Of a stretch of 64,000 nt of DNA, positions 8,681-46,800 are shown in pieces. Source of the DNA: an uncultured Rivularia sp. (GTDB lineage: Bacteria > Cyanobacteriota > Cyanobacteriia > Cyanobacteriales > Nostocaceae); contig OY762007.1 of NCBI GenBank assembly GCA_963665115.1, positions 6,048,001 to 6,112,000 on the forward strand. The letters run 5' to 3'. The notes beneath the pieces are model-generated. The model was not told the DNA's origin and did not search any database. It saw only the letters and a list, made by a program, of their open reading frames with translations. Position 1 is the first letter of the stretch. Every line of letters starts with the position of its first letter. The position numbers and the translations under genes are program-made.

Positions 8681-9550
8681 ATGGCTCAGTTTGATTTGAA
8701 TAATATCCTACAGCAAATAGAACAAGAAATTGAAATCGATGCCCAAGGTCGTGGGAAAGCTAGCATCCGGGCTACCGCTAGATTAGCTGGTGTAAGCGAT
8801 ATGGCATTAAGAAAAGCTTTTACCAGTGCGAACCTAGAGCCAAATGAATTAGCGAAAAAGCTTATAGGTCAAGGTTTTGATGCTGCGAACCTTCAGGATT
8901 GGTCTACATATAGAATACCTGACATTGCCATTTCTACAATTTTAGAATATTACGCTTTCGATGCCCGCAGGTATTGCACGGAACAAGCCAGGTTGACATA
9001 TAAAGCTTTCGCCACCGTTGGAATTCGTAGTTGGATACAGCAAATTAAAAATTGGCAGCAATCCAAACAAGAAGTTGTTTCAGACCAGCCTAGTGTAAAA
9101 GATATTTCGGAAGCAATTTCATCAGTTTTCTGCTTAGGAACAATTAACCCGAATCTCGTACAGGGTTTAATTGCCAATGAAATAGGTAAAGCATATCCTC
9201 ACCTCAAAGCCCAAATGGAGGCTGTAAAGCAATTGCTACCAACTCCTGTTGAAGATGAGTTAGTCACTGTTACTAACCTTGCCAAACTGTATATGGAGCA
9301 TGGAGGTAAAAAATTGAATCAAAATAATAGCAGCCAAAGTAATGCAAAGCTTATGAATAAAATTTTGATAAACAAGGGGATGCAATTCAAAAATCCTAAT
9401 TCCGATGCGAAAAAGAATGGACAACCTTTATATTTACCAACTGAGTTAGGTAAGCAGTATAGTAAAGTCATATTACAAGAAGCAAATAGAAGCAATAAAA
9501 CAATTCAACAATTGCGGTGGTTTCCGGCGGTTTTGGGTTTGATTGATTAG
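8681..9550 (+). CDS. Putative DNA-binding protein, phage antirepressor-like
   Basis: N-terminal HTH-like SIRATARLAGVSDMALRK; C-terminal winged-helix-like MNKILINKGMQ...PTELGKQY...QLRW. Confidence 0.5.
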   Translation: MAQFDLNNILQQIEQEIEIDAQGRGKASIRATARLAGVSDMALRKAFTSANLEPNELAKKLIGQGFDAANLQDWSTYRIPDIAISTILEYYAFDARRYCTEQARLTYKAFATVGIRSWIQQIKNWQQSKQEVVSDQPSVKDISEAISSVFCLGTINPNLVQGLIANEIGKAYPHLKAQMEAVKQLLPTPVEDELVTVTNLAKLYMEHGGKKLNQNNSSQSNAKLMNKILINKGMQFKNPNSDAKKNGQPLYLPTELGKQYSKVILQEANRSNKTIQQLRWFPAVLGLID

Positions 9551-9639: not shown

Positions 9640-12600
9640 TTACCCTTGCTGTAAACCTTTCTGCTCTTGGAAAGCACCATGCTCAAAACTTTTCTTCTCA
9701 TCCTCTGTAAAATTGCATACTAAAACTGGTTTTCCTCTTTGTGCCTTGTATAAAGTCCCGCGATGATTTTCCTTCTCATCAACAATCCGCAGCATTTCTG
9801 AAGGTATATGGTGAATAACTCGATATTTACCATCCCCAAAAGTTGCTGTTTGTATTTCCTCATCAGCATTCGCGGGATTTTCTTTTAAACTCGCAAGAGC
9901 CTGTTTTAACATCTGCTTTTCCCATTCTTCGCGTTTTACTGATACGGAAGTTTCTGGAAGAGGTAAAGGAGATAAATTTGAATTATTTTCTTTGGAGGCT
10001 GCTATGTGTGTATTATTCTCAACAGAATTTGTTTCATGAATCGCTTTAACTTCAACTTGTTGAGTTTTTGACTCCTTTATTTGATTTTTATTGCCGATTT
10101 CATTAATCAACTCTCGTAATTCATTCAACTCAATTGCGATAAATTTAGTTCTTTGTCCATTTTGTAACTGGTCGTATTCTAGAGGGAAATTTAATGTATC
10201 TTTGATTCTAGCTGCTGTTTTCTGTTCTGAAACCTTTGTAGGAACAGTAACACAAAAATAAAGTTCTTCAATATTGTCCTTGTTAGCGATACCAATCAAG
10301 CTTTCAACACCAAATTTTTTATCAATCTCCTCAGATAGTTTCTGAAAAACTTCTGGTTCTATATTTTTTTCTTTCAAAAAAGATTCAAAATATTCATTTT
10401 TTATAGGTAATACACCTAAAGATGCTTCCGAGTCATGCAATAAACCTTTGTTCTCTTTCTCGTGATAAATTTCATTGAGAATTTGTTTTAATTCATCTAA
10501 TAAACTTTTTTTATTGTCTGTAACTAGAGGTTCTTCTTTTATCCAAGTTTGAGGATATTGGATTGTTTGGGGGTCAACTTTTATATGAGCAATAGTAGCA
10601 GGTGATGATTCAAGCTTTCCTTCAAACTTAAATCCTTCGATTTGAATACCTCTTGAATTCAATTTTTCACTTAATACTTTGAATGATTCTTTATCAATTA
10701 CTCCCAAAGGTTTATCATCAACTAAAGCAATGGGTTTAACGGAAGAACCAACATTAGAAAGTTTAATTTTTACTATGCCTTGCTCTCCATTCCATTCTCT
10801 TGAAACTGCATCATATTTTTTCAACTGTCCCACTTTCAATTGATTACCTTTGGTACTTGTGATAACAACCGATGCGCTTGGTGGAGAAGTGATTTCTGCA
10901 CTAAAAGAAGTACCGATAGGTAACTGTGCTGATTCGCTACGAAATACCCCCAATTTTTTATCTTCAGCTACTAACCAACGTTTATTTTGTGTTGGATTAG
11001 CAGGGGTCGGGTGCTTGTTCGATAGTACATTCAACTTTTTCACCTACCCATTTACGTCCCAAATGTTCGTTACAGGGTTTATGGGTTCCCACAACTGCGA
11101 ATTCAGTAAATTGCAGTTTTTCTAATCTTCCAATTATTTCTTCTCCAAATACAGCGAATGCAGCTGATGTTTTGTTAAATCCATATTTTGCATCATCTTT
11201 GCTCGTTGTTGAAATCTGCCACATTGCAGCTGCAACTGCTTCTTTTTCTGAGTCAGGAATAGTTTCACGAGTTGTAGTTGCGAATTCTTTTACTTGTTTG
11301 AAAGCTGCTCTAACTTGACTTGATGTCAATCCAGGTTCAATTTTTTTGGTTAAATTTTTGAATTCGGTGAATGGTTTAATACGACCTTGAAATTGCTCTA
11401 AAGAAGTTTCTGAAATATAACCTAAGTGTTTGCGCTGTTGCTGACCGTTGGTTTTTACCTTCGGTTTTCCGCGTTCGTCGAGTACAGGTGCTATAGCTAT
11501 CCATTTGTTATCGACTTTATTGAAGTGATTTTTATTTTCTATTAATGAAATATTAAGTTTTCGATTCTCAAAGATATTTGGATGTTTTTTCTGAGATAAA
11601 CCAACAATTTCTATTTGAAGACCTTTAGGATTAATTGCAACAATTTTTAAACCTGGTGCTTGTTTAACTTCTTTACTAATTTGAATTGCACGACGAATCA
11701 ATGAATCGTATATTTTCTTTATATTAACTGCTTTTTGTTTCTGTGCGGGTGTAAATTCAACTCCATTAAAAAAGTTTTGAAACTGTTGGGTTGAACGCGG
11801 TACAATTGCGCTTTGTGCGAATGCTTCATTGGTTATACTCGCCATTTTATCGATAGCGGAGTGACCTTTGACATTCATTGTCTTTTTAGTATAAATTTCA
11901 TTATTATTTCTATCTTCAACCCACGGAGCAATATCAAAGCTTTTGATAATGTTATTACAGGCATTTACTATTTTTGGGTCGGAGCGATTAGCACTTTTAC
12001 CTCTATCAACTTCGATTTGTAGCTGTCCTCCTAAAGTTCCTACAACATCGTGATAAAATTTACCAATTTTTTCTAAAATATGTTCAATTTTTGATTCGGG
12101 GATTCGAGGTAGACTTTTATTGTGTTGTGGTAGTTTATTTATTTCAGTTTTATTTTGAGCTTCTGGTTGACACAACTGTGCTAATTCAACTATTTGCGTT
12201 CGGAGATTTTCTGGATATTGAATTGGGTGAGTGTGATGGTTTTCGGCTTTTAAAATTTCTACTGCTGCACAAGAAATATCTTTAATGAATTTCTGGGCTT
12301 CTTTCGGTGGAATTGAGATACATTCATTTTCAAGAGCAATTCCTTTCATGCATAAATTAGCAACTATGCCAATTTTATTCTCCATCGCATCTAACGCTAT
12401 TTGCTCAAAAGAACCCTTATATGCTTTTTTCTCTGGCTTAACTATTTCGGAATAACGGTTTTCTTTTAGTTGCTTCTGTTTAATTTCTGCTGTCGTGTGA
12501 GGGAAGTCAGATGATAAGGCGATCGCCATTCTATCTCCGTCACAATCGGATAGCGAATGCTTTAATCCTTGGGGTGACATTTTTATCGTGCCAATATCGT

Positions 12601-14086
12601 GCGGTTCGTTTGGTAAATGACGATTGATATAAACGTCCACCGTGTTGGAATTAGCAGTGGGACCGCGATAAACGGTTAAGGAAGCACCATCTGGGAATTT
12701 AGGGTAACAAACTTCATTTTTCTCTAAATCATGACAAGTTTGCGCCATTGCTGAATCAAATTTGATAAATCTTCCTGTAGCGCAATCCATATACTGTTGT
12801 TTCAAGTGTTCTTGAAGTTTATCTATGATTTTGGGATGCTCCAATAATTGACAATGTTCTTTCAAATCTGCTTTGAGAATGCGATATATCAAGTTTTGCT
12901 CGCAATCATTTGACAAAAACATATCATCAATTAGATTTTCAATATCTCCTAAATCAAAGCTTTCAAAATCAATCAAATCTTCAGATTCTGTCTGAGCTTG
13001 TATTTGATGTTTACATTTAGCATCTATTGAATCGATATAGTCTTGAGCGATTTTTCTGGGGTCATTAGCCATATCTTTGAGTTCTTCCAAACGTCTTTGC
13101 AATCGTGGAAGAACATCACCTTCTACTCCTCTAGGAAAAGAATTCCAAAATTGAGCGCCCGTGGAAGTGATACCGTGATATGCATTGGTCTTGTTTCCAA
13201 TTCCCATCTTCATTAGGTATTCCCCAGGTTTTAGAGGAGTGGGGGAGGGGGTGATGGGGGGAGTGGGGGAATGGGAGAGTGAGGGAGTGAGGGAAGTGGG
13301 AGTGAGGGATTGGTCTACAACAATATTCGTTCTTTCTGTACCTGCTGTATACTCTCGTTCATTCCCTCTCTCTCTCCCTCCCTCCCTCTCTCGCTCTTTC
13401 CCCCTCTCTCCCGCTCTCCCACTCCCCCACTCCTCTTTCTGTACTCGTCCTTTGAGTTGTTCGCTCGAAATTACCAAATCATATCCATTCCCTACCTGAC
13501 TTAAATCCCGTGGCGCAAATGTACCTTTTCCCAATTGCCAAGTTTTATTAATGTCATTATTTTGGTTAAGCCCAGCACGTCTTTCTTTGATACCAAACCG
13601 AGTTTGAAATGGTGTTTCTGGCTCATTACCTAAAGACTTATGTAATACAGCATCTATTTTCCCATCACCATCACCAACTAACTTAATTGCTTCAGAATTT
13701 GGCATCACCCCACCATTCTCACCAGTGTCAGCATCCACAACTAAAACTCGTAAATTTTCTCGTTCAGAAAAACTTTGACAGGGTGTAAACATATTGGAAC
13801 CATATGCAGCACCGAAGTGGGGTTCGTCAAAAATCTTTTCTCGCAATTCCTCATCCATAAAGTAGAAGCGATTATCGGCTGCAAATTGCAGTGTTAATCC
13901 TTCTGTTGTAAATTGTTTGAGGTCTTCTTCTGTTGATAATCCCTGATATACTATTCCCAACTTGAAAGTAGAACTTTGAGCAAAGTATTCTGCCAAGCAG
14001 TGTTCAATTGTTTCTGTAATTGGTTCTCCGTCCGCGATAATTGGTTTACCCGTTTTTGTGCAGAAGTGGGAGAGGGTAATTGCCAT
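9640..14086 (-). CDS. Large single-subunit two-barrel RNA polymerase (cellular RdRP/YonO-like), about 1480 aa, frameshifted near 11005
   Basis: Ordered motifs GDGDGKI, FQTRFG...LGKG, YRGP and catalytic SDCDGD (12533-12547), then GIVAN and EVDRGK; removing one base of the G-run at 11004-11007 joins ORF 10997..14086 to 9640..11043 (EQAPDP-ANPTQNK). Confidence 0.75.
13233..13436. mobile_element. 204-bp MITE-like inverted-repeat element inserted in frame in the polymerase gene
   Basis: Perfect 15-bp terminal inverted repeats AGAGGAGTGGGGGAG (13233-13247) and CTCCCCCACTCCTCT (13422-13436); arms of purine/pyrimidine octamers; length equals 68 codons. Confidence 0.7.
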
Positions 14087-14683: not shown

Positions 14684-14947
14684 CTACTGCACGGTGATTG
14701 CACGTACCAAAATACTCATTACCTCTCCTGGATTAGAAGTTGGTAACAACGGAGTCCAATCCCGTACATTTGCATAGCCAAGTTGATGTAAAACCTGAAT
14801 TGTCGCTATTACTGCTTTACGGGAGCCAGTTAGTATATGCTTGATTCTTTCTGGTTCCGGAGGTTGAGATATTATAGGCTGAGGACTCACAATAGCTTTT
14901 TGTTGATTTCTCGCATCACTCAGAAAATTTCGATACTCTGATTTCAT
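14684..14947 (-). CDS. Conserved cyanobacterial hypothetical protein
   Basis: 87 aa with an HILTGS..AV..TI..LH.LGYA...DW..L.P...GEVMSIL pattern recalled from small cyanobacterial proteins. Confidence 0.7.
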   Translation of the reverse strand: MKSEYRNFLSDARNQQKAIVSPQPIISQPPEPERIKHILTGSRKAVIATIQVLHQLGYANVRDWTPLLPTSNPGEVMSILVRAITVQ

Positions 14948-14971
14948 TATTTATTCACCGCTATTACGATT

Positions 14972-15241
14972 TCATTTTTGACTCCCCGTGAGGGGTTTTA
15001 CTAGCTGCAAGTATTCAGTTTCGAGGCAATTATTTGTCCTGAAATAAAGTCGAAACGAACCGTCCCCGTATTGCTTTAATCCTTGTTCACAGAAATGAAT
15101 TTATTGTCTTTGAAGCCATTGAATAATGCTTTCGTAATTATCAGTTAAGAAAAGTGCAGGAAAATAAATTCGTCCGGTTTTAACTCCAGTTTTTGGGTGA
15201 GTAAATATTTGAAATTGCGGCTCGCTTAAAACTTCAGCCAT
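14972..15241 (-). pseudogene. Hypothetical gene with an in-frame premature TAA at 15101-15103
   Basis: MAEVLSEPQF...WLQRQ*IHFCEQGLKQYGDGSFRLYFRT...LTGSQK*; the frame stays open for 42 more codons after the stop. Confidence 0.55.
14984..14995 (-). promoter_or_regulatory. Mini-hairpin CCCC-GTGA-GGGG, putative hairpin promoter 1
   Basis: 36 nt upstream of the 14947 ATG; same architecture as 16620 and 17347. Confidence 0.5.
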
Positions 15242-15329
15242 TACTATTACTTTGTGAAAATACTTTGAATAATTTTGAAAGCTTGTGATAGATAAATTGA
15301 AGTACCTTGACACAAGATTTCCTAAAAGA

Positions 15330-16067
15330 TTAATTAGATAGTGACTCGGAATATTTCACGAAATTCGAGATTTTCCAGTTCAAACCATGCACTTTATCAG
15401 CAATATTTGGCTTAGAAGAATTGCCATCACATAGCATACAAAATTCACATTTTATAATGTCATTTTCAGTGTGACGACAAAGGATTTCGTTATCACTTAA
15501 AGGTGCATCGGGAGCCATAATCCTAAAAGTTCTCCAGCCTTTACTTTGAGCAATACGAGCTTCCGATTCGCTTTGTACTGAAGCCATCAAATATGTTTGC
15601 CAGCGTTTGTCGCAGTCATTGCGAAACCATTGATGTGTGTAGCCAGTATATCCAACAGATGCAGAAATAATCGGTTCCCAGACATCGAATGGTACTGCTG
15701 TAGGGTCGCCATATGAACCAATTCTGATAGGATAACGATAATACTTTAAAAGTTCTATTTCATTTTTGCTGAGTTTTGAGTAAGTACCTGCTACATATTT
15801 TCGGTACATATTATTTATTGGAGCGAGATTGACATAGCAGCTTCCTGTTTTGCTCAATTTTAAACTACAAGAGCCACAAATACCTCGATCCAAACCTTGC
15901 TTTGCAGCAAAAGTGGGAACGAATTCTTGTTGTAAAACCCAGCTTTGAATCATCCTTCCGGTTTTGCGATTTGAACTAGGAGAAACAAAGCCTGTCAAAA
16001 TCAGAACTATAGGAGAACCGTCAATTAAAGATGCCCCTTCCCAAACTATATAACTATTTTTCAACAT
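15330..16067 (-). CDS. Cys-rich phage/plasmid protein, possibly Fe-S binding (Gp88/DUF7227-like)
   Basis: SNRKTG, CGSC...GSCYV, IRIGSYGDP, GYTHQW, LMASV, GWRTFR and C-terminal C..C.LCDG motifs; family assigned from recall. Confidence 0.6.
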   Translation of the reverse strand: MLKNSYIVWEGASLIDGSPIVLILTGFVSPSSNRKTGRMIQSWVLQQEFVPTFAAKQGLDRGICGSCSLKLSKTGSCYVNLAPINNMYRKYVAGTYSKLSKNEIELLKYYRYPIRIGSYGDPTAVPFDVWEPIISASVGYTGYTHQWFRNDCDKRWQTYLMASVQSESEARIAQSKGWRTFRIMAPDAPLSDNEILCRHTENDIIKCEFCMLCDGNSSKPNIADKVHGLNWKISNFVKYSESLSN

Positions 16068-16152
16068 ATTAATAGCGGACAAATATTTTGATTTTTCTGA
16101 AGCGAAAAGTATTTGAAATGATGATGTATGTGAAATAATCTACGACACCAAA

Positions 16153-16182
16153 AAGGGGAATAAAATCAACTTTATTCCCCTT
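16153..16182 (-). terminator. Rho-independent terminator after the 16207..16584 gene
   Basis: AAGGGGAATAAA-N6-TTTATTCCCCTT stem followed by a T-run on the minus strand. Confidence 0.7.
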
Positions 16183-16206
16183 GAATTCTGGTTTATAATT
16201 TCAGTA

Positions 16207-16584
16207 TTAATTCTCGGCTTTCATTTGAGGATTAACACTTGCATTTACCCTCTGGGCATATTCCCTCCTGCGCTGCCAAGATAATTCGTTTAGTACTACT
16301 AAATCTTCCTTAGTTTTACCAAATTTACGATTAGCGAATTCAAGCAGTTGTTCAAGGGAATAGCGCTTTTCTTCTACTTTTCCAAAATCAGTTGCGAAGC
16401 GCTCTTTAAATACATCCCAATTAAAGTTTTGAAAACTGTTTTTAGCAAGAAGTCCGCATAAAGACCGTATGGAATAGTAGACTTTAGAGTAAAGTCTTTC
16501 TGAGTAATCGCTAACTGAATACTCGCCTAAAACGGAATCATCGATTGCTTGAAAGTTTGGTGCAGAGGATTTACGTGTAGCCAT
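16207..16584 (-). CDS. Hypothetical protein
   Basis: 125-aa ATG ORF with an AGGAG RBS and a downstream terminator. Confidence 0.7.
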   Translation of the reverse strand: MATRKSSAPNFQAIDDSVLGEYSVSDYSERLYSKVYYSIRSLCGLLAKNSFQNFNWDVFKERFATDFGKVEEKRYSLEQLLEFANRKFGKTKEDLVVLNELSWQRRREYAQRVNASVNPQMKAEN

Positions 16585-16619
16585 AAGACAGATATCTCCT
16601 AAATTTTCATTGCTCTATT

Positions 16620-16631
16620 GGGCGTAAGCCC
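16620..16631 (-). promoter_or_regulatory. Mini-hairpin GGGC-GTAA-GCCC, putative hairpin promoter 2
   Basis: Intergenic, 35 nt upstream of the 16584 ATG. Confidence 0.55.
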
Positions 16632-16671
16632 TCTTTCTATTGGATTATTTCAGTACGTTAAGTTTCGGTAA

Positions 16672-16917
16672 TCAGCACCAAGATGAATCGTGATAATCTG
16701 CCATTAAATCCTTGATTTCACAGTTGTGCTGATAATCAATTTCTAACTGTTGAAAGTCTGTATCTAATGCTAGATTTTTCAATTCTTGTATCATTTCTTT
16801 AACATGATTTTCATCACTGATACCTGAGTAGTAAACTTTGATAAATTTGTCAGCTTTAGTCATGAATTGTTCTAGATTTGTGACGAAACCCTGTTCTGTT
16901 TCAATTGCTTGAATCAT
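16672..16917 (-). CDS. Small acidic hypothetical protein
   Basis: 81-aa ATG ORF with an AGGAG RBS. Confidence 0.65.
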   Translation of the reverse strand: MIQAIETEQGFVTNLEQFMTKADKFIKVYYSGISDENHVKEMIQELKNLALDTDFQQLEIDYQHNCEIKDLMADYHDSSWC

Positions 16918-16947
16918 GATTTTCTCCTATAAACTATTTGAAGCGAT

Positions 16948-17310
16948 TTAGTATTCGTTTGGAAGCATGAGGACTTTTTCAACCAGATAGAGCTTGATAT
17001 GATTCAATGGAAAATCTGTATATTCAATTTCTTGCCGTAATACTTCTTGATTCGTATCCCATTCGCATATCAAAATTCCGGAATTATCTTGAACTTGTAA
17101 ATGCCAAATTTGAAATTCTCGGAGTTTTGGATTCGATAGGAATTGTTTCGTTTGATGTGAAGCGATTGCATCTAATAACCAATAGCAGTTAGCTTCTTGC
17201 GCTAGGTATTGGATTCCTTCAGTGTATTTTAAGCCGAGCCAGTGTTTGTAGAGAGTGACTGAACCATAAAATTGTTTTAGCTCGATGGTTATTTCTTGTG
17301 AAGTTTTCAT
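16948..17310 (-). CDS. DUF6876-like plasmid/phage protein
   Basis: F.GS...YKH...YTEG..YLA....YWLLDAIAS...QEIEYTDFPL..IKLY.....LMLPNEY pattern; family assigned from recall. Confidence 0.7.
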   Translation of the reverse strand: MKTSQEITIELKQFYGSVTLYKHWLGLKYTEGIQYLAQEANCYWLLDAIASHQTKQFLSNPKLREFQIWHLQVQDNSGILICEWDTNQEVLRQEIEYTDFPLNHIKLYLVEKVLMLPNEY

Positions 17311-17346
17311 TTTTTCAAAATCATTTTACGAACTTCACAACTTCAT

Positions 17347-17358
17347 CGGCGTGAGCCG
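17347..17358 (-). promoter_or_regulatory. Mini-hairpin CGGC-GTGA-GCCG, putative hairpin promoter 3
   Basis: Intergenic, 36 nt upstream of the 17310 ATG. Confidence 0.55.
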
Positions 17359-17749
17359 TAAAACGATAACTGCTGATAATAGATGCCAGCAGTTAAAAGA
17401 TTTTAAAAATCTTTTATGAAAACATTTTTTTTATTTAATATATTTTTTTATAAACTAAAATAAATTTCGATGGCTATAGATAGTTAAATGATGATGTTTT
17501 GTCAGATAGAGACTTTTTTCTCATCGTGGTAGTTCAATACCTTTAATTATATTTTCGGACGATTTTGAACGTACAAATTTTATCAATTATTTATCTCAAA
17601 ATCCAAAATTATTGAATGACTACGACCAAAAAGTTATACATCAAGATATTAGCGAGAAAGATTCTAAAGTGGTAAATTTCTGCTATCGAGTCAAACATTT
17701 GTACGAGCAATGGAAAATAACATGAATCTTACACGTACCTAATTTCATA

Positions 17750-18922: not shown

Positions 18923-20503
18923 TCAACTAAACATCAAATCCAAAAACGATATACTTTTAAATTCCTTTCTTAAAGTATGACTTTCACCTACCTGAGTGGG
19001 TGGGACAAAAGTATATCCGGATGGTATTAAAAAATCATATTCTTGTGCTAATTGCTTTGCTTTTTCTGAAGCTTGATATCCTGGTGGTAATTTCCGTTTG
19101 TGACATTGCCTTAAATGAGGACTAATACTTGCTATTGCTCTAGATATATTATCCGGATTACCAAAGTTTTCATCAAAATCCCTATCATACTTGATACGAG
19201 AAACGTATTGAATACGATGTCTATTAATTGATGATGATTTTCCGAATCCGGTTCCAGAAGTCGGCGATAAAGATGGTTTTCTTAATACTTTTCTCGCAAC
19301 TAAAATATCACGGTATGCGATTGTAGTAAGAAATTTAAGAATTTTAACTTCTGCATCAAAATCGGGATAATTCCCCATTATTTCCACGTTTCGCTGCTTG
19401 GCATTAATTTTACCGACAACAACTAAGCAGTTATTTGGATTATCATCAATATATGCAAGAACTATTTTAATTAAGCATAGCAAACCACTATTATCTTGAG
19501 GATAGAAAATAATTTCTTCTAAACCGTTTTTATTAACGATAATACTGGTGGGTTGATGTATTGAAAATTCTCTGTTAACTACAGCTTCTGCCAACACCTT
19601 TGGGCAATTATCAAATGCTGTTTGACTAGGTATATTGCATAAGCTGGATACAGTAATTGTATATAATTTATGGTTGAGTTCATCACTATCATCAATAATT
19701 TTATCCCACCTATCACCATTAAGCAAATAGGCATATGCGGGTATGTTTCGCACCAAACTAGTTAACAAAACAAGTTGACTATTCGTATTAACTTTGAATT
19801 CTTGCCATATTAGATTATCTTCAATTAGTGCAATTGGAAGTTCTAATTTTTTAGTTTCTATAAAATGATTTTTAACTAAGTGCATCGTATCGCATACAAT
19901 AGAAGCGGGAGCTTCATATTCTATGTATGTTTGAATTAATGAAGATAGTTTATCTAATTTATTGATAGGAATATTAGCTTCATGAGTTAATTTTAATTTT
20001 ATCTCTTTTTTCAACTTATTTAATCTGTTTCTATATAACCATTTTGTAGCCTGAATGTAGCTGATTGAATGAGTTTGTGAATATACCATCCAATCATTCA
20101 TCAACTTACACCATTTCTGTACTTCAATTTTGCTCATAAGCCGATACCTATGTAAATTTGCTCCTGATTGAATATATAAATTAAGTTCTTTTTGTTGACG
20201 AAGGATGTCTAACCATTTTTGGACAAAATCACGATTTTCTTTTTTACTTACGTTAAATATTAAATCAAAGAAAAATAAATCAGTATTTTTATCTTTCAAT
20301 TTATGATATGAGTCTAGTAAAAATAAAGCCCAACATATCATTCCATAGGGTGTATCCTCTATGCCAAAGCTAACTTTCCCATAAGGACTTTTCCATTTAT
20401 TAATTAGTTCAAGAAATTCTTTCTTCTTAATTTCTGTGTATGCTAAGACAGCTAGTTCCTTATTTTCATTTGAAATTATTCTTGGAACTATCTTGATTTT
20501 CAT
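18923..20503 (-). CDS. Hypothetical protein with a C-terminal PHLRxxHxR...FVPP motif
   Basis: 526-aa ORF with a GGAGG RBS; no function recognised. Confidence 0.7.
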   Translation of the reverse strand: MKIKIVPRIISNENKELAVLAYTEIKKKEFLELINKWKSPYGKVSFGIEDTPYGMICWALFLLDSYHKLKDKNTDLFFFDLIFNVSKKENRDFVQKWLDILRQQKELNLYIQSGANLHRYRLMSKIEVQKWCKLMNDWMVYSQTHSISYIQATKWLYRNRLNKLKKEIKLKLTHEANIPINKLDKLSSLIQTYIEYEAPASIVCDTMHLVKNHFIETKKLELPIALIEDNLIWQEFKVNTNSQLVLLTSLVRNIPAYAYLLNGDRWDKIIDDSDELNHKLYTITVSSLCNIPSQTAFDNCPKVLAEAVVNREFSIHQPTSIIVNKNGLEEIIFYPQDNSGLLCLIKIVLAYIDDNPNNCLVVVGKINAKQRNVEIMGNYPDFDAEVKILKFLTTIAYRDILVARKVLRKPSLSPTSGTGFGKSSSINRHRIQYVSRIKYDRDFDENFGNPDNISRAIASISPHLRQCHKRKLPPGYQASEKAKQLAQEYDFLIPSGYTFVPPTQVGESHTLRKEFKSISFLDLMFS

Positions 20504-32100: not shown

Positions 32101-34965
32101 GCCATTAGGTAAAAGTGGCAGAGTTTTTAGCCGAATGAAGGCAGACGGAACCATGTAGTGTGGTAGCCTTTCTAGTAAAAAATCTCGTAGGTCAGGTGTT
32201 GTAAGGGTAGATTGTTTTTCAAGTACTACATATGCTACCAGAGACTTGTTTCCTGGTCGATCCTCACGAGCCAGTACCACAGTTTCTCGAACAGTAGGGT
32301 GTTGTTTGAGTGCAGATTCAATTTCCCCTAGCTCAATGCGAAAGCCATGAATTTTGACTTGGTTATCAATCCGTCCGAGAAACTCAATATTGCCGTCTGG
32401 TAAGTAGCGAGCTAAATCACCTGTTTTGTACAAGCGCTGTGTGAAACCAATCTCTTGTGTTTCTGCAAAGGGATTAAAAATAAATTTTTCATTTGTTAGC
32501 TCCGGCCGGTTTAGATAGCATCTAGCTACTCCCGCACCCCCAAGGTATAATTCTCCGGGTACGCCAATAGGCACTGGTTGTAGCAAAGAATCCAAGATAT
32601 AAATTTGAGTGTTAGCAATTGGACGGCCGAGAGGAATATTCTCAGAATAATCAATAGTTTGCTCAAGCTTGATTGGATAAGTTAATATGCCAACAGTGGC
32701 TTCTGTTGGCCCGTAGTGGTTAAAAATAAAGCATTCGGGAGCCAATTGCTGTATTTGTTTAATCAATTTACCTGTGAGAGCTTCACCACCAATAATCAAT
32801 CGCTTTTTAGGTAAAATTCGTTCAGGGTGAGAAGATGTTAGTAAAGCACTCAGATGAGAAGGAACAATCTTTAGGCAGTCTATGGAATGACGATGAAAAT
32901 AGTTTGCTAAAGTCTCAGGATTGGAAGCATATTCTGATGGCACTACATATAGGCATCCACCAGTACATAAGGCAGGAAAGATAACAGTGTTGCCCAAGTC
33001 AGCAGCAAATGTAGAAACGGTAGCAAATCTACTGCATACCGAAAGATTTAGTCTGTCTTGAATTGCATTTATATAGTTGACAAGTTGTTGATGCTCAACA
33101 GCAACTCCTTTAGGTTTGCCTGTTGAACCGGAAGTGAAGAGTACGTAGACTAAATCTTTAGTTGTTACAAAGTTGTTCGGCTTGCTAGTTCTCTCTTGAG
33201 CAATCACTTCCCAGTTTGTATCTAAGGATACTATCTGAGTTTTTAAATCTGGATTTTTTTTAACTAATGCCCCTTGTGTCAAAATTACAGGTACCCGAGC
33301 ATCTTGCAATCGGTACGCTAAACCCTCTGGAGGTAGTTCTGGATCGAGAGGAAGATAGGCTCCACCAGCTTTGAGGATAGCCAGTAGAGCGATAACTATT
33401 TCAAGCGATCGCTCTAAATAAACTCCTACTAAAACTTCTGGTTTAACTCCTTGGCTTTGTAGATAGTTAGCTAATTGATTGGCGCGTGCGTTTAACTCGT
33501 AGTAAGTTAGTTGTTGTTCTTCAAACACAACAGCAATTTTATCCGGTGTCTGTTCTGCTTGTTCCTCAAATATCTGGTGAATACACTTGTCTTGTTGGTA
33601 TTGTTTTTGGGTATTATTGAATTCAACTAACAGTTGTTGTCTTTGGCGCGCGCCAAGAATATTTAGCCTCGCAATAGAACTTTCTGGATTTTGAATTACA
33701 CTTGTTAATAAGTTTTGAAACTGTTCTGATAATGTTTTGATATCTTGCAGATTATATAAGTTTGAATCGAAATAAAACTGGGCAATTAAATTATCAGACT
33801 GAAGAAGGCAAGTTAATTTAATCTTAAATTTATCAATACAAGAGTACTGCTTGTATAAAGAAAACAACAGATTCTCAGCAGATAATTCCGGATATTCTTC
33901 AAATTCAAAACTAAATGGACAAAAAGACTGTGAGTTTACAGTTTCTTGCCAGGTAAAATATTCTTGTGATTCGTAGGCACTATTTACCAGTTTATTTATT
34001 TTTTTTAGTATTTCGCTAAATTGAAATTCTGCTTCTAAATTATAAGAAAGCGGTAAATGTTTGGATAACAGTCCTAAAGCTTGATTTAATTCTTCGTATT
34101 TTCTACCATCGCCAGTAACACCAATAAATATATCCGACTGTCTAGTAATTTTCCAAATTAATATCAACCAACAAGCTAGCAGAAAATCAGATTTATTAAC
34201 CTTATATGTGTTAGTTATTGATTCTATCTGTTTGATTAAATCATTACTGATATTTAAAGAAATATATTCAGGCTGAAATTGTGAAATTGTAGTTTGTTTA
34301 TTTTCAAACCAAAGTTTTACATTATTAATCAAACTCACATCTTGCTTACGCCAATATTCTTTGCCTAATTCTGACTCATTTGACTCTAAAAGTTCATTTT
34401 GCCATTGTGCAATATCCGCATATTGCATTGGTTCATCAAGAATATGTTTCTCTCCTGAGCAAGCTGCATATGAACTACTAATTTTGTTAAGTAAAATTTT
34501 GAGAGTAAAGCTATCCGCAATTAATGCAGATAAACTTAACATTAATATATATTTTGTCGGAGATAAAGTAATGATATATATCTGTAAAGGTAAATCCTTT
34601 TCTAACTGAAAAGGTCTTCCTTTTAATTCAGTAAATAGAGACTCAATTTTATTTTCTTGTTCTTTTTGAGGCAAACCAATAAAATTAAATTCGTTGATAT
34701 ATTTATTAATACAAATATCAGAAGTGTCAGCTATCACTTGTAATGGTACTGTCATCCCAGGAAGGCAATGAAAATTAGTCCGAAGAATCTCATAGCGATT
34801 GACAACATTCTGCAATGCAGTTTTTAAAACCTCAATATTTAAATTACCTGTGATTATAACTGCACGTTGAACACGTAATGGTAATTGGCTATCACTTTGT
34901 TGTAAAAGCCACAAATGCTTTTGCTGGGGAGATAATTCAAATCCTTCTAGTTGTTCTTTTTGCAT
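29166..34965 (-). CDS. Terminal NRPS: interface-type C - A(Asp) - PCP - E - thioester reductase; frameshifted at 29722-29724
   Basis: First C-like domain has LSALIAD instead of HHxxxD; A code read as DLTKIGHVGK; PCP GGDSI; E domain HHLVVDGISW/EGHGRE; R domain TGATGFVG and GYAQTKW; removing one C gives YRLGRVSGHSKTG joining ORF 29166..29672. Confidence 0.9.
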
Positions 34966-43865: not shown

Positions 43866-46800
43866 TTAGCAAATATTAATATTTTTACTATTTATTATTT
43901 CTCCCATTGAGACAACTATTTTACGTTGTCCTGTATAGGGGTTTCTGCCGTGAGCAGCCAGCATATTATCTAACATAATTACATCATTCTGCTGCCAAGA
44001 AAAGCTAGTTTTTGATTGCTGATATACTGTATTGATTTCGGTAATTTCTTCTTCTGCAATTACTGTACCATCTCCAAAGTAAACATTACGAGGTAGCTTT
44101 GACTCTCCAAATATAGATAAAAGCGATTCTTGTACTTCTGTATCTAAATAGGAGATATGGTGTAATTGAATTTGGTTGAAAAAGACAGATTCGCTAGTTC
44201 TAGGATGTACTGCTAAGGCTGGACGAATTTGTCGAGTAACTAATCCATCATTACTATACCATTCAAATTCAATTCCTGCTTGGCGACAGTAATTTTCTAC
44301 TTCGCTTTTATCTGTAGTTTGAAAGAAATTTTGCCAACTAACATCTAATTTTTCAGCGTAGTTTCTCACGTACATTAGCTGTTTGGTAGCTAGTTTTTCT
44401 CGTAATTGAGGGCTTAGTAGTTGATAAGCTTTTCGACAGTCTATAATTGGAGTTTCTCCACCTAACATAGCAGGTTGAACGCAGTAAAACCAAATTTTTA
44501 AAGGAAAACAATGTAAATGGGAACTTTCATTATGGAAAAGTATAGTTTTATCTGCTGGATAAGGTGTAGAGCCATATACTTTGCCACCTTCACCTATGCG
44601 AGGTAAGTCGCCATATTCGGCAAATAAATCGGGACAAATAGCTTGGGCGAAATTTTCAAATTCTGATACTGATTTTATGTTAAAACCTCTAAATAAAATC
44701 GCTCCATGTTTTAATAATTGTTTTTCAAGATATTCTCGGTTATTCTCAGACCAAGAGATTGAATCAAATTCTACACTATTAGGTTGAATTACGAGAGGAA
44801 ATTTTTGCTCATCTGTTAGATAATTTGTTTTAATCAATTTATCTAATGACAAATTAACAGCTTTAGGAGCAATACTCATAAATTTTTGTCTTTTAGCTGC
44901 TTTACGTTTCTGTTGTTGCATAATTTGTTGCGCTTTTTCTGCTTCCGTAAACATTTCCAATGTATTGATATGGCTTTGAGGTTGGCTAACAATGCTATTG
45001 ATTAATGTTTTCCAGTGATTAGTTAAGCGAGTGATAGTATCAGCAGCAAATAAATCGGCGTTATATTGCCATTCACCTTCTATACCTTGCTCGGTTTCTT
45101 TAATAAATAGAGCTAAATCAAATCTGGCTATTTTGCTTTCTACTTCTATTGGTTCTAAAATAAGTCCTGGTAATTCTAGCGCTGAAGTTGGTGTATTTTG
45201 CAAGACAAATAACACCTGAAATAATGGAGCCTTGTTGCTTAAGTGACGCTCGGGTTTTAATTCTCTAACTAACTCGTCAAAGGGTAAATCTTGATGAGCA
45301 TAAGCTGATAATGTCTGAGTACGAACTCTTTCTAATAACTCTGGGAAGGTAGGATTTCCGCTTAAGTCAGTGCGTAAAACTAACAAGTTAACAAAGAATC
45401 CGATTAATTGTTCAATTTCTGCTTGATTCCGGTTCGCAACATCTGTTCCAACAACAATATCATCTTGATAACTATAGCGCTGTAATAAAATTTTGAAACT
45501 CGCTAGCAGTGTCATGAATAAAGTTACACCTGCTTGTTGGGAAAGCGATCGCAATTCCTGCATCACCTCATTAGGTATCAAAAATGTGTGACTAGCACCC
45601 CGGTTCGTTTTTACTTCTGCACGGGGACAAGTTGTAGGTAGCTGCAATACAGGTAGATTTGCTAATTGCTGCTTCCAGTAAGTAAGTAAACTTTCTAATC
45701 TTTCACCTTGCAAATGTTGACGTTGCCAAACTGCAAAGTCTGCATACTGGATAGATAATTCTGAGAGTGGAGAAGCTTTCTGGGCAGAAAAGGCTTTATA
45801 TAATGCTGCTAACTCCTTTATTAATACACCGATTGACCAACCATCAAAAACTATATGGTGGATAGTAAACAGTAAAATATGTTCTTGTTCACCCAGTTTC
45901 CAAGAGAGTGCATCTGAGTAAGGGAGCTTGGTTAAAATCAAAGGGACGTTGAAATTCTTTTGCACTCAAACTGTTAATTTCCGCTTCTCGTTCGACTTCC
46001 GTCAAATTCCCTAAATTAACTACAGGTATTTTTAGCTGCACGTTGGGAATTATTACCTGTACAGGTTGCCCATCAACTAAAACAAAAGTAGTACGTAAAG
46101 CCTCGTGACGATGAATAATTTGGTTAATGCTTTCTTTTAAAACTTTTATATTTAAATTACCCGTAAGGCGAACCATTGCGGGCATATTGTAAATATAGCT
46201 ACCAGGGTTTAGCTGTTCTAGTAACCATAATCTAGCTTGAGCAAAAGATAGAGGTAAATTGCCATCACCAGGGACAGGCATAATTGCAGAAATACTCTTG
46301 GTGCTTACTTGCTCAATCTCTTTAGCGAGTTCTGCTATTTTTGGGAATTTAAATAGATGCTGAAGAGGTATATCCACCTCCAAGGTTTTGCGAATACGCG
46401 AAATAACTTGAGTTGCTAATAAAGAATGTCCCCCTAGTTCAAAGAAGTTATCGTAAATACCAACTTGGGAAATGTCCAGAACTTGAGTCCAAATTCCGGC
46501 TAGTACTTCTTCTACTGGATTACGGGGAGCAACAAAAGTGCTTTCTAATTCTCTGTTAGCATCTTTTAATAGAGGTAGTGCTTTACGGTCAACCTTACCA
46601 TTGGGTGTAAGTGGCAGTGCCTCTAGGGTGATAAAAGCTGTTGGCACCATGTAGTTTGGTAGCTTTGACTCAGAGAAACTACGTAGTTCATGAGTTACCA
46701 GTGTTTGTTCTTTTTCAGAAACTACATAGGCGACTATTTGTTGAGAATCAACCTCATCTTCCCTGACTACAACTACTGTTTCTCGTACTGCGGGGTATTG

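Follow-up and report, generated by a model that had tools for sequence, protein, structure and literature searches.

Three genes in a 64,000-nucleotide stretch of an uncultured Rivularia sp. genome (contig OY762007.1, positions 6,048,001 to 6,112,000; the whole stretch is referred to as the window) are preceded by a small DNA hairpin on their template strand. We find that this hairpin belongs to a real, widespread and covarying DNA signal that is tied to a long-orphan family of single-chain two-barrel RNA polymerases, one member of which is encoded in the window. Based on sequence comparisons, we favor, with a probability of about 0.7, the interpretation that the hairpins are promoters akin to those of phage N4 and would be read by the polymerase of the mobile element that carries them, probably on transferred single-stranded DNA.

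The hairpin signal and its distribution

The three hairpins of the window and their TTCA boxes are listed below, with distances in nucleotides (nt) and protein lengths in amino acids (aa):
14984..14995, + strand: mini-hairpin 1, CCCC[GTGA]GGGG, on the template strand of an 87-aa gene, 36 nt to the ATG at 14947
14971..14974, + strand: TTCA box of site 1 (TGAA on the mRNA strand), 9 nt from the hairpin, putative start region
16620..16631, + strand: mini-hairpin 2, GGGC[GTAA]GCCC, on the template strand of a 125-aa gene, 35 nt to the ATG at 16584
16606..16609, + strand: TTCA box of site 2, 10 nt from the hairpin
17347..17358, + strand: mini-hairpin 3, CGGC[GTGA]GCCG, on the template strand of the DUF6876 gene that heads a gene cassette, 36 nt to the ATG at 17310
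17334..17337, + strand: TTCA box of site 3, 9 nt from the hairpin

A sequence-only reading of the window had reported the positions of these hairpins, their differing but paired stems with a C-G closing pair, their spacing of 35-36 nt from the ATG and a TTCA box 9-10 nt toward the gene, and all of these features were found again, the measured gaps being 9, 10 and 9 nt. The same reading placed site 1 inside the 3' end of a pseudogene, and a broken 89-codon gene with an in-frame stop indeed occupies 14972-15241, its stop codon overlapped by the TTCA box of site 1. On the template strand, the window motif consists of TTCA, 9-10 nt and a 4-bp stem with a C-G closing pair around a GTNA loop; T bases flank all three hairpins on each side, and AGGAG is present in the leader of site 2. 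The mini-hairpin is the sole structure common to the centroid folds of the three sites, with no long stem, and nearest-neighbor energies (-3.9 to -4.7 kcal/mol) hardly distinguish one strand from the other. The sigma-70 consensus (-35/-10) fits none of the three sites, and an Rfam scan returned a single chance match to MIR408 and nothing relevant to the hairpins. Outside its two CRISPR arrays, the 8.69-Mb genome holds 77 perfect C-GTRA-G hairpins with 4-bp stems, 11 of which have TTCA at the right distance; in this chromosome-wide pattern scan, the TTCA-equipped hairpins were not scattered but concentrated in one cassette, four copies of which account for 10 of the 11.

A generic motif, for which two G-C pairs flanking GN(N)A suffice, was defined after the strict pattern missed sites on plasmids of PCC 7120 (a GTA triloop on pCC7120alpha, shorter stems on pCC7120beta). 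At the best 80 of 147 confirmed polymerase loci, many of which are kin, template-strand matches upstream of 1081 open reading frames (ORFs) numbered 1, 8, 5, 78, 28 and 11 per successive 10-nt bin from the ATG, compared to 4, 3, 2, 4, 2 and 2 on the coding strand, a peak at 30-39 nt of 78 template versus 4 coding matches. The host chromosome was flat for the same motif (35 template versus 25 coding in 7426 ORFs). A pattern search over 41 relatives is not counted as evidence because pairing was not enforceable and the background was high.

Since the polymerase loci include many kin, we reduced the matches to 89 distinct tetraloop sites, which precede 22 unrelated protein families. Loop position 2 is T in 92% of them, although the search did not require it, and the second pair is G-C in 82%. 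The third pair is Watson-Crick in 75 of the 89, with all four pair types represented, and the fourth in 51; TTCA at a gap of 9-10 nt likewise occurs in 51/89. In a permutation test with one site per family, the third pair formed in 17.75 of 22 families versus 6.2 after shuffling and the fourth in 11.2 versus 5.8 (median p 0.01), with pairs five and six at chance level. This zone has 83 distinct perfect stems with any loop; C[GTNA]G accounts for 38 of them and the complementary loop for none. The stem covariation over 22 families and the sharp positional and strand bias support the earlier suggestion of a structure-recognized signal at fixed spacing. The GTRA loop proposed with it holds at the three window sites but not in general, as the third loop base is free (GTNA; C or T in 20% of loops) and other clades use GNA triloops, a pattern that fits DNA mini-hairpins rather than GNRA loops of RNA. 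We consider a DNA structure, formed by the template strand, the most likely form of the signal.

Stem conservation at orthologous loci, on which the sequence-only reading had staked its claim, was borne out to different degrees. The hairpin is kept in 27/29 upstream regions of DUF6876 orthologues and in 23/27 of the 125-aa gene, there with stems as different as GGGC/GCCC, GAGC/GCTC, TGGC/GCCA and AGGC/GCCT, and a version with at least three pairs is found in 12 of 20 distinct upstream regions of the 87-aa gene. An 81-aa cassette gene that lacks the hairpin in the window has it in 7/25 orthologues, and an operon-internal 245-aa gene, an internal negative control, in 0/24.

Loop versions differ by element (GTNA, GTA, GAA, GATA or GGTA), with up to 15 sites per element. 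The eight sites of pCC7120alpha have a GTA triloop, and pCC7120beta, in the same cell, uses GTNA. Planktothrix p3 carries 11 template versus 0 coding sites, nine of them GGTA; element G225 has 12 versus 0, all GATA; and contig 12 of genome G250 has 15 versus 2, with 14 GAA, while another element of that genome uses GTTA. Over 15 hand-picked elements, 93 of 99 sites belong to their element's majority loop class, compared to 46 after shuffling (maximum 59). This uniformity argues for an element-encoded reader, without proving that the polymerase is that reader.

The two-barrel polymerase and its elements

The polymerase gene of the window is split into two parts:
10997..14086, - strand: N-terminal 1029 aa of a single-chain two-barrel RNA-polymerase-like gene, with D514-x-D516-x-D518, K187 and K212
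9640..11043, - strand: out-of-frame C-terminal part of the same gene, its frameshifted continuation

The sequence-only reading had not pointed to this gene, whose product is the likely reader of the hairpins. Its close homologues are single proteins of 1450-1480 aa. The genome has four polymerase loci, two intact, that of the window frameshifted and one truncated, and the cassette remnant at the truncated locus has no hairpin. An intact paralogue of 1264 aa is encoded at chromosome 5915622-5919416, and All7191 is an intact polymerase of PCC 7120. Alignment of 40 homologues showed D514, D516, D518, K187 and K212 to be invariant, with the consensus DFDGD, and the DxDxD motif was detected in 72/76 polymerase ORFs. 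A predicted model (predicted local distance difference test score, pLDDT, 80.9) gave Foldseek matches to RDR2, QDE-1, Thermus phage P74 gp62, gp96 and the crAss phi14:2 virion RNA polymerase (vRNAP), with E values from 2.6e-10 to 2.5e-4, whereas the model of the C-terminal part gave only weak, uninformative matches. A PDB sequence search with the single protein found nothing, and a PDB profile search gave matches only at E about 2, on the DFDGD region of Pol IV. The DFDGD motif, the invariant lysines and the predicted RDR2/QDE-1-like fold mark the protein as a single-chain two-barrel polymerase resembling YonO and RNA-dependent RNA polymerases (RdRP), with RNA synthesis as its predicted activity. 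The family was matched in 96 plasmid records, including both large PCC 7120 plasmids.

Cyanobacterial polymerases of this YonO/RdRP-like type have been listed since at least 2010, and the passages devoted to them assign neither role, template nor promoter, leaving the YonO promoter sequence open (PMC2919709, PMC5467207, PMC3417536). The present enzyme shares with those described the DxDxD motif, the invariant lysines and the RDR2/QDE-1-like fold; it differs in having a candidate promoter, the hairpin.

Hairpins and polymerase genes tend to occur together. Five polymerase-bearing plasmids yielded 38 template versus 10 coding matches in 921 ORFs, compared to 7 versus 6 in 576 ORFs of four plasmids without the polymerase (alpha, gamma and pREB8 entered this comparison without their last 8, 2 and 0.7 kb). 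On the complete 144-kb plasmid pTCL26-01_B, hairpins within 150 nt upstream of annotated genes are limited to seven tetraloop sites, which share a strand and cluster in a single 11-kb block. Sampling by DUF6876 matched 16 of 251 genomes; in the ten that remain once the host genome and five distant matches are left out, eight have the hairpin, and seven of these eight have a polymerase gene 3-88 kb away. The other two, one of them 75% complete, have neither a C-G-closed hairpin nor the polymerase; the 75% complete genome (G111) shows a T-A-closed AGCT[GACA]AGCT 39 nt upstream of its DUF6876 gene. Among eight DUF6876 plasmids examined, two have both polymerase and hairpin, and five have no polymerase, with a weak or misplaced hairpin in two of the five. 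On pLBX, the polymerase genes lie about 200 kb from a hairpin-less DUF6876 gene in a MOBF module. The link spans MOBV, MOBP and transfer-less elements, and the polymerase is the common gene found across carriers, no systematic search for other shared genes having been made. [quoted passage not shown]

Proposed hairpin promoters and the alternatives

The conserved start-codon spacing, together with the lack of a sigma-70 match, favors a promoter. In the mechanism that we propose, a C-G-closed DNA mini-hairpin on the template strand would be bound by the two-barrel polymerase of the same mobile element, which would start RNA about 10-12 nt from the hairpin, at the TGAA box, to give leaders of about 25 nt. 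On pCC7120alpha, starts in the forward direction are predicted near 34144, 35714, 36480, 40624, 41479, 74773, 75086 and 75772. When the single strand of a conjugative element of the window type arrives in a new cell, the hairpins would fold, and establishment genes (DUF6876, SSB and others) could be expressed early with neither a sigma factor nor the host polymerase. The orientation of these genes is consistent with such use: in 6/6 elements examined (two from this genome plus pTCL26-01_B, pCC7120alpha, pCC7120beta and pBOCT2), the genes led by hairpins are located 5' of the relaxase gene and are oriented toward it, on pCC7120alpha at a distance of 130-170 kb. Given the general rule, as set out in the relevant part of PMC11541004, that the relaxase gene enters last, the hairpin strand would be the transferred strand. 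A more specific version sees a private phage-like early transcription system of cyanobacterial conjugative elements, in which the polymerase itself would accompany the transferred strand and read mini-hairpins specific to its element while that DNA is naked and single-stranded; we consider this version tentative and less likely than not. A C-terminal translocation signal common to polymerases and relaxases was not found among the ORFs examined.

Several known systems resemble the hairpin signal in part. Its core, GC-GN(N)A-GC with a C-G closing pair, is the consensus core of the Hirao mini-hairpin d(GCGNNAGC)/d(GCGNAGC), which is extraordinarily stable and poorly bound by SSB (PMC13037366). 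The Hirao mini-hairpin is a chemical motif with few natural uses, and those named in the pertinent section of that source (N4 vRNAP, the G4 origin and ssiA) do not include cyanobacterial plasmids. As in the N4 vRNAP promoters portrayed in the passages concerned of PMC13037366 and PMC13434306, a short G..A-loop hairpin lies on the template strand upstream of a gene, on DNA that would be single-stranded; the N4 element encodes the polymerase that expresses its first genes, and by analogy we predict the same role here. The GAA and GTA triloops of the cyanobacterial family are a further N4-like feature. However, N4 vRNAP is T7-like, whereas the linked enzyme here is two-barrel and RdRP/YonO-like; N4 promoters have a 3-base loop on a 5-bp stem, whereas the window sites have 4-nt loops on 4-bp stems and other clades have triloops on 2-4-bp stems; and the carrier is a plasmid or integrated element instead of a virion. 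Frpo/ssi elements, in the account given in sections of PMC11541004, likewise lie upstream of establishment-type genes, 5' of the relaxase gene and on what is here the putative transferred strand. Frpo mimics duplex DNA for the host RNA polymerase, whereas here a 12-nt hairpin without -35/-10 boxes tracks an element-encoded polymerase, and no duplex-mimicking structure with host promoter boxes was seen at the three sites. By this comparison, the hairpin signal would work like an N4 promoter and sit like Frpo, yet the features compared place it in neither family. We found no report that links two-barrel polymerases to hairpin promoters in the literature searched (subscription journals and bioRxiv supplements lay outside its coverage).

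Instead of mRNA, the same polymerase could make short primers of RNA at the hairpins, which would then be priming signals from which the second strand of transferred DNA is synthesized. A primase role has been proposed for RdRP-like enzymes of selfish elements in the part of PMC3417536 that deals with them, mini-hairpins are described at the G4 and ssiA priming sites in the corresponding part of PMC13037366, and the sites are mostly on one strand. However, priming does not need the spacing of 30-39 nt from the start codon that is kept before 22 unrelated families, and it sits poorly with the absence of the hairpin from all 24 orthologues of the operon-internal gene and with the number of sites on single elements. 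We regard priming in place of transcription as improbable, while noting that the two roles could coexist.

Slightly less probable still is that the hairpins are single-strand promoters or activator sites read by the host RNA polymerase or by another element factor, with the two-barrel gene as a fellow traveller. Host polymerase does use Frpo promoters on transferred DNA, according to the portion of PMC11541004 on that subject, and a few hairpins occur without a polymerase nearby; more generally, inheritance together with another factor of the element could explain both the co-occurrence and the uniform loops. Against this alternative stand the absence of a long stem and of -35/-10 boxes, the different loop versions within one cell, and the breadth of elements across which the polymerase is the shared gene, within the search described above.

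A very unlikely explanation is that the sites are double-stranded operators at which an element repressor silences genes in established cells, as in zygotic induction. The hairpin-led genes are silent in laboratory PCC 7120 and a repressor could recognize the constant core GCGTNAGC in the duplex, but the arms vary while remaining complementary, the conserved part is an asymmetric spacer, and the loop switches between 3 and 4 nt with the G..A and the C-G closing pair kept. An RNA-level element or CRISPR-repeat mimic is the least probable of all: CCCCGTGAGGGG of hairpin 1 equals the stem-loop of 20 CRISPR repeats at chromosome 1448695-1460117, and GTGA and GTAA are GNRA loops, but the match is confined to the 12-nt hairpin and flanking T bases at one of three sites, without the repeat flanks, the stems of the other sites are unrelated, the mRNA has the complementary loop, and the loop variants and Rfam result given above do not fit. 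The identity between site 1 and the CRISPR repeat is probably convergence on a stable hairpin.

The promoter interpretation with the element's own polymerase as reader has several observations weighing against it. In the window copy of the element, a decaying example, the polymerase gene carries a frameshift and a relaxase was not found. Hairpins are present in genome G280, where the polymerase is only a broken fragment on another contig. Two plasmids without the polymerase have related structures before DUF6876, a weak GCC[GACA]GGT on pPSE7367.01 and a GCA-loop hairpin about 110 nt upstream on an Acetobacter plasmid. A site lies within 10 kb at 47 of 76 polymerases, so that many loci are without one. 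On a 35-row FastTree polymerase tree with long branches, loop class changes nine times and thus does not follow simple clades. The G-T versus A-C asymmetry over the 89 sites did not discriminate the folding strand. As to transfer, oriT and nic were not located in these elements, Planktothrix p3 (11 sites, short polymerase) has no coupling protein, and 3 of 27 sites in G225 and G250 contig 12 are on the minority strand, so that conjugative single-strand transfer cannot be the only route. Finally, in the transcription-unit table of PCC 7120, as far as given in PMC10287535, no unit or transcription start site (TSS) begins at the eight alpha or four beta sites. The polymerase genes themselves are without a gene-start TSS in the same table, which therefore does not discriminate; silence of the 12 sites in the laboratory fits a transfer-induced programme and equally simple silence.

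A clade of elements of about 90-120 kb (G139, G225, G250 and Planktothrix p3) encodes a short two-barrel polymerase of about 880 aa, together with HU, DNA ligase, DUF5131, a DUF3854 replicon and as many as 15 small genes led by hairpins. Transfer genes were not recognized in the scanned parts of G225, G250 and G139, and no phage record matched the short polymerase. N4 hairpins extrude from duplex DNA, as stated in the relevant passage of PMC13434306, and by analogy those of the short-polymerase elements may do likewise.

The analysis provides a concrete candidate promoter and regulon for the cyanobacterial YonO/RdRP-like polymerases. Should the interpretation hold, the use of hairpin promoters would no longer be confined to one T7-like phage enzyme but would reach into the two-barrel superfamily, which includes cellular RNA polymerases and RNAi polymerases, and two-barrel polymerases would gain their first structure-defined promoter. 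It would also represent a second solution, besides Frpo, for expressing establishment genes before incoming plasmids become double-stranded. The element-specific loops suggest orthogonal expression parts, in which case polymerase and promoter would form naturally orthogonal pairs, and since both large PCC 7120 plasmids carry the polymerase, a genetic model is at hand.

The cassette and its surroundings

The cassette comprises, in order, six genes:
16948..17310, - strand: DUF6876 gene, 120 aa, head of the cassette
16672..16917, - strand: 81-aa gene, no family, without a hairpin in the window
16207..16584, - strand: 125-aa gene, no family, led by hairpin 2
15330..16067, - strand: 245-aa Cys-rich gene, phrog_2554 (E 2e-67), no Pfam family
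14972..15241, - strand: 89-codon gene with an in-frame stop, intact at two other cassette copies
14684..14947, - strand: 87-aa gene, no family, led by hairpin 1

On other plasmids, DUF6876 neighbors ArdA, ArdC, RadC, SSB and antirestriction genes. The 245-aa Cys-rich protein is conserved in the cassette and, by resemblance, may be an Fe-S (iron-sulfur) enzyme. An insertion of about 40 nt that carries a GC-rich hairpin of its own (chromosome 5924370-5924450) has moved one of the ten cassette sites of the genome to 79 nt from the ATG; the TTCA box of this displaced site is still 9 nt away. The second hairpin of the cassette's orphan fourth copy has lost its closing pair.

Two further structures lie near the hairpins:
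17368..17394, no strand assigned: separate 8-bp inverted repeat, about 10 nt upstream of hairpin 3
19902-19915, template strand: GAAGC[GGGA]GCTTC, a 5-bp G..A-loop hairpin inside a 526-aa gene, without a TTCA box

A similar inverted repeat recurs near the DUF6876 hairpin at the other three cassette copies of the genome and could be an operator or terminator. The hairpin within the 526-aa gene is probably due to chance.

The left 18 kb of the window are part of an integrated element, which also encodes a replication initiator, DnaB and a TraL-like gene, with TrbI/VirB10 and a type IV coupling protein encoded immediately left of the window. Adjoining the polymerase gene, at 8681-9550, is a 289-aa gene with a BstA-like segment (phrog_6287, E 1.5e-8). 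Unrelated to the hairpins, positions 20871-63916 hold a large nonribosomal peptide synthetase/polyketide synthase cluster with TauD domains, an acylase, MbtH and a major facilitator superfamily exporter, which is siderophore-like. Its 3346-aa ORF overlaps the next ORF of 699 aa, in which the condensation domain lacks part of its N-terminus; this points to a frameshift near 45900.

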